Below, one piece after another: positions 18,725 through 25,361 of a DNA stretch of 64,000 bases. The first letter of the stretch is position 1; every line of letters begins with the position of its first letter. The notes below the pieces were generated by a model. The model was not told the origin of the DNA, did not search any database, and worked only from the letters and a program-made list of their open reading frames with translations. The DNA lies in NCBI GenBank assembly GCA_050250895.1, contig JBFWNU010000004.1:494934-558933 (forward strand). Reading direction: 5' to 3'. The translations under genes were made by a program, and so were the position numbers. Source of the DNA: Vulcanimicrobiota bacterium. GTDB lineage: Bacteria > Vulcanimicrobiota > Xenobia > Xenobiales > JADMJV01.

Positions 18725-18965
18725 GCGGCGACGGAGAAGTGACCCCCGCTAATAGACCTTTTCTCGCGGAGGGGGTCGCTGAGCCGTCGCCCCCGAGCGC
18801 GCTCCTTGCGTGCGCAGTTCCATCAGGTTCAACGTGGTCTGAGAACTGCGCCCGAGCCCTTTCAGTCACGCCTACGCCCTTCTCCGTTGCAGTTCTTGCT
18901 CACGTCCCGCGGCGCTGGCGAGCGCCCTTTGGGCAAAGAGCGCGCCAGCGCCCCGGTGGCGTTTC
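18725..18965. repeat. Degenerate non-coding island element, copy 1 (longest, hairpin-rich)
   Basis: Shares GAAGTG..CCTT..GCTGAGCCGTC..GCCCTTTCAG with 25004-25110 and CAGTT..TTTCAGTCA.GCCT with 24165-24262. Confidence 0.55.
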
Positions 18966-19419
18966 AGTCACTCTTGGCATTGTCCGGAATTCTCTTGCTG
19001 GAGACAACAAACCCGGTGAGTCTGCCCTTACATCCGTAGGCAGTTAAATAGCCGTCTCGAAGGATAAACTCGGTAGTGTGAATATCCTTTCTCTGGACAT
19101 CGGGGGTCGGGACACCAAATCTGCGACAGAGACCTTCAAGGTGGTCACCATCGCAAAACCGACTCCCCAGGACCTCCAGATGAGAGCCCCCGATTGATAC
19201 GGCGATTCCCGATTCAGAAAAGAAGACAGTTCGGCCGTCGCTGTATTGCCAACAACGAGAGCGTCTTTCTCGAGGTTCGCCAGCTAACTCCACGACCTGA
19301 GCGTGGGTCATTCCGATCTTTAGTTCGTCGACAATGACCGCGTTAACGTCCTGAGAGACTCGGAACGAGGCCTGTGGTGGCGTGCAACCCACCACCATCA
19401 GCATTATTGACACAATCAA
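18964..19419 (-). CDS. Putative Rhs immunity lipoprotein
   Basis: Directly downstream of Rhs toxin tip; hydrophobic N-terminus ending VVGC; LKIGMTHAQVVELAGEP (SmpA/BamE-like); lower GC. Confidence 0.65.
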   Translation of the reverse strand: MIVSIMLMVVGCTPPQASFRVSQDVNAVIVDELKIGMTHAQVVELAGEPRERRSRCWQYSDGRTVFFSESGIAVSIGGSHLEVLGSRFCDGDHLEGLCRRFGVPTPDVQRKDIHTTEFILRDGYLTAYGCKGRLTGFVVSSKRIPDNAKSD

Positions 19420-19433
19420 CGCTTGATGTCGAA

Positions 19434-20610
19434 TTACCGTCCCTCCATGTACTTCGCGACATTATGCATTTGCTGCAAAATGCGTTTATCGACCGAGCGG
19501 TTCAGAGTGTTGATATGGGGAATCAATGCCATATCGGTTTCTCTCGCCGACCAACTTTCCAGGAACCGTGACTCATCCTCCCAAACCGGGGTCTCGAGAG
19601 CGGAGATCCCCCTAGGGTCACCCAACCAATGTCCTACAATGCCAAACCATAACGAATCGAGAGTGCCCTGTCTCAACACATGACGCGCCTCGTGGAAGAG
19701 AAGAGCTGTCGTATACACAAATTCCGCTTCGTCCGCTGACCGTGAGCAATTTGATTCACTTATCCCAATATTTCGGGTAAAAGGATTTGTAAAACCGTCT
19801 GCATGCGGGTTCCCAGGCATGCGGTTGAGCCTGTCCCACTTCCAACGAGAAGCCAACACGTCGGCCTCCTTTTCATAACCGAGTGCGCGTATCTTAGCTA
19901 TCCCGCGCTGAATTGTTTCAGCGTAGCTCGGCGAGAACCCATTGGGTCTGATGGTATCCGCTCCTGGAAGTCCATCCAGACCAACCGGATCCACATAATT
20001 CACCGGATTCCCGCCAACATACCCATACAGGTTCAAGCCACCCGCAAACCCGATCGGGTCCCGAGAGAGAAATCGCCCCAGCCTGGCATCGTAATGTCGA
20101 GCCCGCATGTAAAGCAGGTTGGTGTCACCCGAGTCATCGTGCACACCAAGCCCGCCCACGAAGGTCTTTGGACTAGAGCCAGAACCCGTCTTCGTCTGCT
20201 CACCGAACTCGAGATACTCGTAGGCCGCCACCTCATCACCACTGCCGTCCACCACGATTCGCACCGAGGTTAAGCCGTCGGTCAGCAGGTAGAAGAAGTC
20301 GCCCCCGCTCTCGAAGCCCATCAACTGATGGCCCATCAGGTAGTTGAACTCCACCGGCGAGCCCACGGCCGGCGTCTCCACCTCGTTCAGTGTCGGCAAG
20401 CCAGAGTAGAAGCTCTCGGTCACCGTCTCGTCGTCGAGGATCTTGGCCTTGCGGATACCACCGGCATCATAGGTATGCAGCACCTTGGTGTCAGCCGGAC
20501 TAAAGGCCACCCGAATGAGGTTGTCCTGGTCGTCCCAGCGATAGGCGATGGTGTCGCTGGTGGCCGCGTCGGTCCGCAGCGTCATGTTACCGTCGTCGTC
20601 GCCGGTGATA
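19434..20610 (-). pseudogene. rhs: Orphan (5'-truncated) Rhs core + C-terminal toxin with HExxH motif
   Basis: LLYMRARHYDARLGRFLSRDPIGFAGGLNLYGYVGGNPVNYVDPVG; tip contains FHEARH; in-frame ATG at 20585. Confidence 0.85.
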
Positions 20611-20653
20611 TGAGCGCGCGCCGGTACTCGATTTTCAGTTAAGGAGAGAAGGC

Positions 20654-20968
20654 TCAGAGGTGCTCGACCCGGTTGCGCATCTCTTCGGGGTCCATGGCAC
20701 CGTGAATCAGCAGCAGCGCCTGAATCATCTCGCCGAAGGTTCGATGAGCCTGAGGAGTGTAGGCGATCCCCGCGTGCGGCTGGCCCTGGGAGTGAAGGAT
20801 CCAGTAGTCCTCGTCCATGGTGATCATAACTCGACCCTGTTCGGTGGCGAAGGCTAGTTGCGCGGCGTCCGGGTAGCGGAGTCGGCCGGCGTCTCTGGCG
20901 GTCAGCACGTCGACACCCCCCTCCGTGACCGCGGCGGGCACCATCTCGTCGCTGTAAAATTTGATCAC
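20654..20968 (-). CDS. DUF5615 PIN-like toxin (VapC45-like)
   Basis: IKFYSDEMV, DAAQLAFA, GRVMITMDEDY, HAGI; coupled to DUF433 gene. Confidence 0.85.
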   Translation of the reverse strand: MIKFYSDEMVPAAVTEGGVDVLTARDAGRLRYPDAAQLAFATEQGRVMITMDEDYWILHSQGQPHAGIAYTPQAHRTFGEMIQALLLIHGAMDPEEMRNRVEHL

Positions 20969-21246
20969 GCACTTCGAAGCTTCGAGGAGCTTTCGGCCTT
21001 GAGCTTCAGAAAACGCTCCCGCTCTTGTCGCATCTGGCCGCGGATTTCGTCGAGGTGCTCGTAATAGTAGACGAGCGCGGCGTGGACTTCGGCCAGAGAG
21101 AGGTGGAACTCGCGGGCGATCTGAACGGGCGTTTGCTGCTGGTATTCGGTCAGGGCGGCCACATCCTGAACGCGGATGCGGTGGCCTTTAATGCAGGGCT
21201 TGCCGCCGCAGATCCCGGGAGTGCTGGTGATGTATTCAGAAAGCAT
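20965..21246 (-). CDS. DUF433 antitoxin (VapB45-like), copy 1
   Basis: ITSTPGICGGKPCIKGHRIRV, VHAALVYY; start refined to ATG 21246, 7 nt after TG-A-TACAAT. Confidence 0.9.
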   Translation of the reverse strand: MLSEYITSTPGICGGKPCIKGHRIRVQDVAALTEYQQQTPVQIAREFHLSLAEVHAALVYYYEHLDEIRGQMRQERERFLKLKAESSSKLRSA

Positions 21247-21259
21247 CAGGTCCATTGTA

Positions 21260-21910
21260 TCACGATGGGGAACCCCGGTGAGTCTTCCGGGCCCGAGGGT
21301 GGGTTCGGCGATGTTCTCGAGCTACCTCGAGGGCAGAAAGGCGAGTGTAGAGCTGGGTGGTCGAGGCCCGGGCGTGGCCCAGCATCTCCTGGACGTGGCG
21401 CAGGTCGGCGCCGGCCTGCACCAGGTGGCTGGCAAAGGCATAGCGCAGCAGATGCGGAGTGACCTGAGCTTTGAGGCCGGCTCGAAGAGTGGGCGGGCCC
21501 GGGCGAGGTAGAGGCGCAGCAGCTCGGCCAGATGGTCCGAGAGCGGCAGCTTGCGGTCTTTGGCCCCTTTGCCGCGACGCACGTGAAGGATGCCGTCGTC
21601 AAGCTCCAGGTCCACCAGGTCGAGGCCGGCACACTCGGAGCTGCGCACGCCCAGAGCATGGCTCACCGAGTTGGGTGAGTAGAGGCGGCCCTTGGAATTG
21701 GGCTGCCAGAGCATGCGGCTTTGGAAGCGCATCAGGTGGGCCGGCGTGACCTGGTTGGGTTGCTCGCCCTCGCAGCTGGCCTGGAAGAGGGCCAGCCAGT
21801 GGCGGGTCCTCGACGGCCTTGGCCAGGCCGGCTCGGGTGGCCACCCGCCGCACCATGTGGGCCAGGTTGGCTCGGGCCAACGGCTTGCCGTGCTTGCTCA
21901 GAAAGACCCT
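21260..21910 (-). pseudogene. Fragmented XerC/D-like tyrosine recombinase(s)
   Basis: Frames give [69 protein letters not shown]. Confidence 0.85.
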
Positions 21911-24135: not shown

Positions 24136-24164
24136 CAGGTCCATTGTATCACCATGGGGAGCCC

Positions 24165-24262
24165 CGTGGTCGCGCTCAGTTTCTGATATGGGCTCGATGT
24201 GGGTTTGGAATTTGTCCGTGCGTTTCAGTCATGCCTGCCCCCTTCACCGATTGAGCCTTGCT
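24165..24262. repeat. Degenerate non-coding island element, copy 2 (partial)
   Basis: Similarity by eye to 18805-18900. Confidence 0.45.
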
Positions 24263-24477
24263 ATCATCCCCCAGGACAGCCGAGTGCCTTCTCCAGACCG
24301 TCAGGGACTGCGAGTTCTGCCAGATCGCCAGACCCGTTCACTCAGCGCCTGGTAGGAGGTGACTGGCCCAGCCCGGCCGAGGCGACTCAGGCTTCATTTT
24401 GGTTCCTCGGCCGGCAGTAGCTGTCGCGAATCTTGAGGACCTCAGCCTGGCCGGCGTCACGATGAAGGCTGCCCAGA

Positions 24478-24663
24478 CTACCTGTCGAGCCATTTGGACA
24501 ACCGTTGGCGGGCTTCGTCGTGGGTGACGACCCGCCCGGCGACAAGGTCATCGCGGCCCTGTAGGACTTTCTGCTCGAGGTACAGGCGGTAGATGATGTC
24601 TTCCATCGAGGAACCGTCGGGCATCTGGGCCACCAGTTCGAGGACTCGTTGCTTGGGTGTCAT
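24478..24663 (-). CDS. Small antitoxin of the type found before RelE/ParE toxins
   Basis: KQRVLELVAQMPD..EDIIYRLY..GRVVTHDEARQRLSKW; overlapping ATG 24493 reads MARQVVW (ParE-like start). Confidence 0.75.
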   Translation of the reverse strand: MTPKQRVLELVAQMPDGSSMEDIIYRLYLEQKVLQGRDDLVAGRVVTHDEARQRLSKWLDR

Positions 24664-24693
24664 GGCTTCTCGTATTCCATTTCATCCGCCTTG

Positions 24694-24984
24694 TCACCCC
24701 TCGAACTGCCGGCCGTCTCGGTCACCGGCGCGATTTGCAGGCGTTGAGCCAGCAGCATGACCAGGGCCTCTTTGAGTGCCACCTTGCGACCCAACTCGAG
24801 TGATAGCGAATGTAGAACTAGCCGAAGCAGCTCGGTTGTCTCGGGGTCGAGGTGCAAGGTGATCTCTTCGCTCTCGACCTCGGTCGGCGGAATCCCGCCA
24901 GGCAGGCCGCCTTTGGGAGTGGTGGAGGGCTTCGGGTTTAAGGGCGATGAGGGCTTCGCGGGTGTGTTCTTGAAGAGGTTTCAT
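24694..24984 (-). pseudogene. Internally deleted second copy of the HNH gene
   Basis: Keeps start (MKPLQ..EALHH), middle (TPKGGLPG..IAPVTE) and end (GRQFE) of 22142-23238. Confidence 0.85.
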
Positions 24985-25003
24985 ACTCCGATTTTACCGA
25001 AGC

Positions 25004-25110
25004 CCGGCGAAGGAAGTGTCCCGCGAGCCCCTTCTGGCCCGTGGGTTGCTGAGCCGTCACCCAAACCAGCTCGTCTCGCTGCACATTTCACCAGGCCCTT
25101 TCAGCTCACC
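25004..25110. repeat. Degenerate non-coding island element, copy 3 (internally deleted)
   Basis: GAAGTG..CCTTCT..GCTGAGCCGTC..CAGG/GCCCTTTCAG matches 18736-18866. Confidence 0.55.
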
Positions 25111-25361
25111 CAGATTCGAGACCGAGTTGAAAAGCAAGCGCGTCGGCTTGAGACAGATAACTTGCGAGGCCACCTCTTCCGCAAGGCTCGGTTGGCCGGT
25201 CCAATCGGTTGCCACTATCCTCAACGGGATGTGTCATCACTACAATCCCTTTCACAGCTCCAACTTGCACGCGTACAGTTTCCTGAATCCAAACCATCTC
25301 CTGGTCTTGACAGCCTGTCCTCGCGAAGGAGTTGACCAAGTGGTCTAGAAAAGTCGGGGCG

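Follow-up and report, generated by a model that had tools for sequence, protein, structure and literature searches.

Arrays of orphan toxin/immunity genes are known in Rhs, contact-dependent growth inhibition (CDI), and type VI secretion (T6SS) systems, and the gathering and exchange of their cassettes have mostly been ascribed to unaided homologous recombination. Here we describe Rhs toxin/immunity cassettes in the 9.5-Mb assembly of a Vulcanimicrobiota bacterium (GCA_050250895.1; referred to here as G000, its contigs as C1, C2, and so on), starting from a stretch of 64,000 nucleotides (nt) of contig JBFWNU010000004.1 (G000:C4:494934-558933; hereafter 'the window', with positions counted from its first letter). 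The region at 18.6-25.1 kb of the window had been predicted to consist of tandem, decaying modules of Rhs, tyrosine-recombinase, HNH, and toxin-antitoxin (TA) genes, possibly driven by the recombinase. We found a repeating plan, namely a DUF222-like/HNH gene in a slot, an Rhs core-end fragment, a unique toxin tip with its immunity gene, and a terminal element with two hairpins, which we call E250; and we consider it probable that the region is a decayed segment of a genome-wide system of such cassettes, exchanged by homologous recombination and invaded by selfish genes.

Several kinds of element offer points of comparison. The REP13E12/DUF222-HNH genes are multi-copy and have a helical N-terminal region and a C-terminal HNH domain. 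The HNH genes of G000 are likewise multi-copy, with a helical N-terminal region (weakly matching DUF222) and a C-terminal HNH domain; unlike REP13E12, however, their DUF222 match stays below the Pfam cut-off. Our search of the open-access literature turned up neither a link of such genes to Rhs cassettes nor a paper that connects Rhs orphans with HNH genes, homing endonucleases, or XerD-type cassettes. Broader parallels are the attC cassettes of integrons, Neisseria pilE/pilS with its Sma/Cla repeat, HO/MAT switching in yeast, and the free-standing homing endonucleases of phage T4; as in these systems, the arrays of G000 have variable cassettes with a folded or repeated 3′ element, presumably silent copies that would feed an expressed locus, and an adjoining nuclease gene. 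Unlike integrons, G000 holds no integron-type integrase, the NCBIfam models for such enzymes scoring far below their cut-offs (63-104 bits vs. 265-435).

In Salmonella, experiments have shown a main rhs gene to recombine with an orphan (PMC3967940). Like the main and orphan Rhs loci of Enterobacteria (Salmonella LT2), G000 keeps C-terminal fragments and an immunity gene downstream of, or apart from, a full gene, with a variable tip that begins after a conserved core end (DPxGL), and by analogy with the Salmonella orphans the exchange may take place by recombination in the core homology. Unlike the enterobacterial loci, the cassettes of G000 carry the structured 3′ E250, have an HNH gene between them, and are scattered over at least 15 loci. 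The closest described array type is the recombinase-associated acquired interbacterial defence (rAID) array of Bacteroidales (PMC12247911), in which a recombinase and conserved intergenic motifs accompany immunity genes only. The arrays of G000 share with it short co-oriented cassettes, conserved intergenic motifs, and, at some arrays, a tyrosine recombinase; they differ in that each cassette combines a toxin tip with an immunity gene, and in that the recombinase, which defines rAID arrays, is occasional while the HNH gene is the constant neighbour. Two further described classes bear on the genes between the cassettes: recombinase-in-trio (RIT) elements, regarded as mobile, in which three neighbouring genes from distinct families overlap (PMC3414803 and PMC8138268), and REP13E12/HNH/DUF222, which is listed as a repeat class in mycobacteria (PMC10589994).

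Results

Cassettes between two conserved flanks

An nhmmer profile of E250 returned 33 strong copies and about a dozen fragments in G000. Flanks long enough for comparison exist for 31 copies. In 20 of these, the 956-1286 nt immediately upstream are unique and follow on sequence that is common to at least two other loci and that is the Rhs core end; colinear similarity between loci amounts to 0.2-0.4% inside the cassette vs. 55-60% in E250. An open reading frame (ORF) of at least 80 amino acids (aa) ends between -40 and +20 nt from the E250 start in 21/31 copies, and in six copies, the one in the window included, the stop codon of the immunity gene is the TGA or TTGA of the first conserved motif of E250, a heptamer. 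The unit is therefore a unique tip and immunity gene between two conserved flanks, and at least 20 cassettes share the plan of Rhs core end, unique 1.0-1.3 kb of tip and immunity gene, and E250. Single pairs of loci display the same design: as far as the core end, C16 agrees with C15 (96.8% identity), and from E250 on it agrees with C2 (97.9%); the 1.1 kb of tip and immunity gene in between match neither of them.

The cassettes are dispersed over at least 15 loci, many without a full Rhs gene nearby, and the assembly has 27 Rhs regions. These include a full-length Rhs gene of 1914 aa on C15, with RHS repeats (RHS_repeat, E 1.4e-47) and DUF6531, which is followed by an immunity ORF and E250; a 939-aa Rhs gene on C5 (RHS_repeat, E 2e-54); a fragment on C8 (E 6.5e-6); and, at the start of C9, an Rhs gene of ~980 aa that is read over several frames. 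The assembly breaks inside cassette repeats. We observed exact 127-nt overlaps among contig ends (C6 right, C9 left, and C17 left; C15 right and C17 right; C10 right and C16 right; C2 left and C15 left; C7 right and C8 right), and one fork of contigs lies at the border of Rhs core end and tip, two Rhs bodies leading to one cassette contig, which reflects either a collapsed repeat or a mixed population.

The window contains one complete orphan cassette, made up of an HExxH tip, a lipoprotein-like immunity gene, and an intact E250, all on the minus strand. Its Rhs fragment has no Pfam match itself; its DNA is 86-89% identical to the core ends of longer Rhs frames, which identifies it as YD/RHS core. 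The conserved core end (19985..20608; 86-89% nt identity to C9:25-648, C3:507352, C2:888376, and C3:19101) runs up to the residues NYVDPVGL (...GGNPVNYVDPVGL), a motif that we take to be the one named PxxxxDPxGL, and is followed by sequence unique in the genome. This variable tip (19434..19984) bears the HExxH motif as HEARH; it falls in no family of Pfam, NCBIfam, or PADLOC, and the ESM Atlas gave a lead to SprT-like and Tox-MPTase4 clusters. The candidate immunity gene, a 151-aa ORF also unique in the genome, lies 15 nt downstream of the tip (18964..19419), has a lipobox-like N-terminus by eye and a weak BamE match (E 0.0027, below the cut-off), and is predicted to confer protection; an Rhs core with an HExxH tip and an immunity-like ORF are thus present as had been foreseen. 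E250 closes the cassette (18716..18972; nhmmer E 1.5e-77). The N-terminal Rhs piece of the window (21987-22141) is separated from this C-terminal third by recombinase and TA genes, which leaves the third an orphan.

A folded end-piece

E250 is a structured end-piece. In an alignment of 23 copies, its two hairpins have 97.3% of their cells paired, and the covariation of the paired columns exceeds that of both controls (0.228 vs. 0.104 in shuffled alignments, 0/500 of which reach it, and vs. 0.025-0.063 when partners are slid), with compensatory change in 8/32 pairs. At twelve U-G cells the pairing holds on the Rhs-sense strand alone, which hints that E250 may fold in the transcript or in the Rhs-sense DNA strand. 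E250 is either constrained or homogenised, for it keeps 85-93% identity between units in which the adjoining HNH genes (the HNH376 subfamily described below) have a synonymous divergence (dS) of 0.46-0.83. A conserved folded 3′ element thus ends each cassette, as in arrays of the integron or rAID type, and an analogue exists in the genome of another genus (G004, below).

E250 matches no described RNA family: an Rfam search of positions 17000-27000 at E up to 1 gave only a chance microRNA match (27.7 bits vs. a gathering score of 70). BLAST found no match in 40 relatives, and an exact 27-mer of E250 is absent from the genome_contigs and metagenome_contigs collections, from which the source genome itself is possibly excluded.

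HNH genes in the slot between cassettes

DUF222-like/HNH genes were found at 52 loci in G000, about half of them far from any Rhs. Two subfamilies hold a fixed place relative to the cassettes. HNH376 (18 loci, six of them intact, the intact paralogs being 372-377 aa) lies no more than 300 nt upstream of an Rhs fragment, and co-oriented with it, at 8/18 loci; homology among nine aligned copies stops at the HNH stop codon, and ~270 nt upstream of the gene are conserved as well. HNH373 (nine loci with 92-95% DNA identity) lies on the strand opposite to the cassette, with its stop codon 24-76 nt from E250 in 8/9 loci and the next Rhs fragment ~300 nt past its start. Both occupy the same slot, between the E250 of one cassette and the next Rhs fragment, and the contents of the slot vary by array: HNH376, HNH373 (antisense), recombinase pieces, or TA genes. 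The slots without HNH, in the arrays at C2:5-10 kb, C15, and C16, have flanks that differ from those of HNH-bearing sites. Purifying selection acts on both subfamilies (omega 0.05-0.16; the most distant copy, 0.24-0.31), and several copies have lost the middle and kept both ends (copy 2 of the window, C6:593 kb, C2:889 kb, and C3:20 kb). HNH gene, Rhs C-terminal fragment, immunity gene, and terminal element stand together at no fewer than eight loci of the genome, so that the repeated unit of the original prediction holds for these parts, but recombinase and TA genes are not constant members of it.

The family matches DUF222 (PF02720) weakly (18.3-21.3 bits vs. a cut-off of 24.4). HNH373 scores well with the Pfam HNH model (29.3 bits vs. 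a cut-off of 21.4), and in HNH376 the Cys and His motifs are legible and the HNH motif is intact. In a structure model of HNH376 built from 17 sequences (mean predicted local distance difference test score, pLDDT, 78.8), the predicted fold of residues 13-148 resembles ParB/Spo0J/Noc DNA-binding domains (Z 9.3-11.3, root-mean-square deviation 2.5-2.9 Å, 101-116 residues aligned), and that of residues 290-368 the HNH domains of IscB, TagI, and McrA (Z 6.8-7.4). PADLOC returned no defence-system family for HNH376 and, for HNH373, weak matches confined to the HNH region (E 3e-4 to 9.5e-4). We also considered HNH376 as an IscB-like, RNA-guided nuclease acting with an E250 RNA and rejected this candidate: the HNH domain alone matches (25-41 bits vs. 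a cut-off of 175), and the structure model has no RuvC part.

One HNH376 unit stands out by its flanks. At C2:343200-345232, the 3′ flank of an intact unit runs straight into the tail that as a rule comes after E250; C3:505300-508420 has a 2.27-kb cassette between the same flanks, and the cassette-less joint on C2 falls in an imperfect direct repeat of 12-15 nt.

Recombinases and toxin-antitoxin genes as occasional guests

The recombinase of the window had been read as Xer-like fragments. We found one gene and not a pair, 5′-truncated, of which the C-terminal half is left in three frames on the minus strand (21260..21880); two of the three frame pieces match Phage_integrase (E 1.5e-8 and 1.3e-6), and the gene is most like the second of three recombinase genes on C16 (39-60% identity). 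The C16 genes are adjacent, co-oriented, and overlapping (416-1330, 1330-2235, and 2216 onward, the third being truncated) and are followed by a short Rhs tip, an immunity ORF, and E250; part of C16 recurs in a near-copy on C15. The intact recombinases form a trio like that of RIT elements, which are a known kind of selfish element: as in these, three adjacent, co-oriented, overlapping tyrosine-recombinase genes stand together on C16, and the trio is found in other genomes too, whereas the window has a single broken gene and the third gene of C16 is incomplete. In other genomes, the trio is present in four of the five closest loci, the fifth being cut by a contig end, and one of the four complete loci has an Rhs fragment within 7 kb of it (other phyla-level records of metagenome-assembled genomes). 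Three more tyrosine-recombinase matches stand together at the start of C1 (C1:1235-3338); their identity to the C16 trio is only ~30%, and neither Rhs nor E250 adjoins them.

Phage_integrase matches occur at 15 places in G000 and, within Rhs arrays, only in the window, on C16, and at C2:8381; recombinase pieces are present in 3-4 of the 27 Rhs regions. The arrays are not each headed by a dedicated recombinase, as arrays of the integron or rAID type would be, and a search of the genome for the predicted intact HNH-Xer-Xer-TA-Rhs unit found none. At the 3′ end of the window recombinase, 40 nt (21259-21298) are 100% identical to C5:84206-84245, where they form the joint of a truncated E250 and an Rhs orphan; the sequence around this identity is only ~85% alike.

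DUF433 and DUF5615 genes, a pairing that we take to be a toxin-antitoxin system, occur twice in the window; the rest of the genome has a remnant behind E250 at C2:886 kb and one further occurrence, on C9, where no Rhs, HNH, or E250 match lies alongside. The first pair of the window is intact, with a 4-nt overlap between its genes (a PIN-like toxin candidate, DUF5615, 20654..20968, PF18480, E 9.7e-11; and an antitoxin candidate, DUF433, 20965..21255, PF04255, E 1e-16; both minus strand); in the second, DUF5615 is broken. Recombinase and TA genes, being present in few arrays, are therefore occasional guests and not parts of the unit.

Recurrence in a second genus

The plan recurs in G004, a genome of a different genus. 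There, an HNH gene lies 114-270 nt upstream, on the same strand, at 5/9 Rhs core-end matches; its protein is about 40-55% identical to HNH376. The G004 cassettes end in a conserved element of their own, whose first part is a long compound hairpin and whose sequence bears no relation to that of E250 (copies at L096:2600-3160, L098:2400-2920, L099:3960-4319, L100:1380-1720, and L101:1350-1790, with 81-96% identity between them). The expectation that the parts would co-occur elsewhere is thus borne out for HNH and Rhs, with the HNH gene directly upstream, and not for recombinase and TA genes. At L098:1993-2430 (G004:C35), ~200 nt past the terminal element that closes one of the G004 cassettes, lies a tyrosine-recombinase-like stretch; over 147 aa it shares 33% identity with the second recombinase of C16.

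The HNH family is multi-copy in 15/15 genomes of the same family and in 5/5 of a second family, with up to 34-40 matches per relative and often at contig ends. In a set of 5.8 billion proteins it is rare, with 19 matches among the 8000 candidates scored.

Layout and decay of the window

ORF listing and Pfam recovered most of the parts predicted at 18.6-25.1 kb, on the minus strand; among the exceptions are the paired Xer genes, a 'ParE-like stub', and two of three 'elements'. The region is repetitive within itself (300 nt at 74%, 210 nt at 85%, and 85 nt at 82% identity), far above chance expectation. It is also decayed. The Rhs gene is interrupted by the recombinase fragment and the intact DUF433/DUF5615 pair, and rightward of the orphan cassette lies the wreck of a second HNH unit with the second, broken pair. 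Because the N-terminal Rhs piece is 93.5% identical to the start of the C9 Rhs gene and the core end 86% identical to that of C9, the window formerly carried a C9-type Rhs gene, the middle of which is replaced by ~1.4 kb of recombinase and TA sequence.

The remaining features follow from left to right and, unless unstranded, lie on the minus strand. A 25-nt unit in three tandem copies (21884..21964, unstranded; 97-100% identity) lies at the joint of Rhs piece and recombinase piece; we noted that it is recombinase coding sequence itself and sits exactly at this joint. The N-terminal Rhs (YD) fragment (21987..22141; 93.5% nt identity to C9:2638-2791) is frameshifted and comes directly after the HNH stop. 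Both predicted HNH genes were detected, and neither is whole. Copy 1, a DUF222-like/HNH gene of the HNH376 type (22142..23238; 93% aa identity to the intact C8 copy over residues 1-293), is broken by a deletion of ~34 nt, which places residues 1-293 and the HNH domain in different frames, and is preceded by the conserved region upstream of HNH376 genes (23239..23510; 72-83% nt identity to the upstream regions of other copies). Copy 2 (24697..25003; tblastn with intact copies, and internal repeats) is heavily deleted, with residues 1-26, 136-205, and the last nine remaining. Between the two stands the second TA pair, with a dead DUF5615 that has an internal deletion (23678..23857; tblastn finds residues 1-31 and 65-85 only) and a second DUF433 (23854..24144; Pfam E 2.3e-18, 71% aa identity to copy 1); Pfam and tblastn here agree with the two DUF433 copies and one dead DUF5615 of the original prediction.

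Other labels fared less well. The 'ParE-like stub' at 24338-24493 encloses a scrap of HNH gene (24414..24457) that is 84-89% identical in nt to the HNH376 segment missing from copy 1. A 61-aa ORF labelled 'antitoxin' (24478..24663) is single-copy in the genome and has no family match in Pfam, NCBIfam, or PADLOC. Of the three supposed elements, the one closing the orphan cassette is highly significant, and the others are a weak E250 remnant at 24219..24270 (nhmmer E 0.016) and a very weak one at 25013..25079 (E 0.65 plus a 20-nt match). Among the neighbouring genes, the Ddn-like label proved right (PF04075, E 1.1e-40), and the 'DoxX-like' protein has no Pfam family; among 20 relatives, the latter finds a match at E 1e-20 or better in one. 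The Ddn-like protein is missing from the matches in a same-genus genome and has several paralogs in other relatives, and no empty site between the two genes could be defined from these genomes. A scan of 15-29 kb found no tRNA and therefore no tRNA-type attachment (att) site.

Two further observations concern the left side of the region. S75, a short palindromic repeat of ~75 nt resembling repetitive extragenic palindromic sequences (18640..18720, unstranded), comes after E250 in the window and at C2:886 kb. By blastn, it has copies on C1, C2, C3, C5, C9, and C13, some of them tandem, with sets spaced by 140-320 nt at C3:334718-335269, C13:51219-51892, C5:344654-345018, and C2:551303-551608. 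Farther left, a 246-aa ORF (16350-17090, minus strand) has, by eye, a PqqD/RRE-like N-terminal part, a twin-arginine-like SRREFLRQ, and a C-terminal half with a very high content of Cys, Gly, and Thr; it could encode a secreted Cys-rich protein or a peptide-maturation fusion.

Discussion

From sequence comparison and by analogy with Salmonella, we reasoned that cassettes kept in store would be exchanged into expressed Rhs genes through homologous recombination in the flanks formed by the core end and E250, while the immunity genes that remain intact would meanwhile protect the cell. The HNH proteins might trigger the exchange by binding and cutting DNA close to the cassette borders, an idea that we put forward tentatively because a ParB-like DNA-binding fold is predicted to be paired with an intact HNH motif. 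Recombinase and TA genes would be secondary invaders of a slot in which insertions are harmless. We favour homologous exchange over the integration of a composite unit because the cassette boundaries fall in long conserved flanks.

Several observations weigh against this reading. In the fragmented assemblies G001, G007, G009, and G013, 0-1 of 17 Rhs core-end matches lie on a contig with HNH, and none of the 11 best HNH loci of relatives has an Rhs within 1.5 kb. Within G000, 5/18 HNH376 loci are near no Rhs, and their copies are old (dS up to 0.8), so that the HNH376 family could be independent of the cassettes. The Rhs fragments behind the HNH376 stop start at varied points (219-659 aa), which a single cleavage or homing site would not predict. 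The HNH376 proteins score just under the Pfam HNH cut-off (20.1 vs. 21.4 bits), and the ParB-like match, with Z below 13, involves a helical domain and possibly a common arrangement of helices. Finally, the compensatory changes in E250 mostly separate two or three subfamilies and so represent few independent events.

Alternatively, selfish elements of unrelated kinds, namely the HNH genes, the recombinase trio, and the TA pairs, would accumulate between cassettes with no role in exchange, the HNH genes being repeats of the REP13E12 kind; such elements might settle there since insertions are harmless, or might aim at the E250 hairpins. The half of the 52 HNH loci that lie far from any Rhs, the many copies and repeat-like contig-end location of the family in 15 same-family and five second-family genomes, the copies that kept their ends and lost their middle, and the differing contents of the slot from array to array all agree with this account, as does the listing of REP13E12/HNH/DUF222 as a mycobacterial repeat class (PMC10589994). 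Against it stand the fixed distance and orientation to Rhs or E250 (8/9 HNH373 and 8/18 HNH376 within 300 nt), the HNH-then-Rhs order kept in another genus whose proteins are as little as ~40-55% identical, and paralogs that are intact at dS 0.5-0.8 with omega near 0.1. We regard it as a serious, if rather doubtful, alternative. A composite mobile unit of HNH, paired Xer-like recombinases, TA, and Rhs genes that integrates repeatedly and site-specifically and then decays, which is close to what was first proposed for the window, we hold to be very improbable, and this recombinase-driven unit is the least supported of the readings: G000 has no intact unit of that make-up; the recombinase pieces are confined to the few Rhs regions counted above and the TA genes to two Rhs loci; the window has one recombinase gene and not a pair; and the intact recombinases are a RIT-like overlapping trio that is Rhs-free in three of four complete loci elsewhere. 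Recombinase genes or pieces do stand beside cassettes in the window, on C16 and in its near-copy on C15, at C2:8381, and behind a G004 cassette, and a site-specific step is kept alive by the 40-nt identity between the window recombinase and the C5 joint of E250 and Rhs orphan, and by the C2:343 kb unit that lacks the 2.27-kb cassette of C3:505-508 kb, with its joint in a direct repeat.

Going further than cassette exchange by homologous recombination, the arrays could be a programmed switching system, with E250 or its G004 counterpart as recognition and homology element, comparable to attC or the Sma/Cla repeat, the ParB-like/HNH nucleases cutting at the borders much as HO does at MAT, and a silent cassette being copied into an expressed Rhs gene; we think this unlikely. 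If it held, the cassette-less HNH unit at C2:343 kb would be an empty acceptor site.

In the lineage of G000, then, toxin/immunity cassettes come with a conserved structured end-piece and a conserved nuclease neighbour, in a plan that holds in two genera. Should the nuclease and the end-piece act in exchange, they would constitute a dedicated switching machine for bacterial weapons, built from a single protein, a DNA or RNA element of ~165 nt, and numerous natural donor cassettes, and open to direct tests. Otherwise, the locus still illustrates how the spaces within toxin arrays are settled by selfish HNH genes, recombinase trios, and TA pairs. The shared cassette plan may, moreover, show how spare Rhs toxin tips get shuffled.

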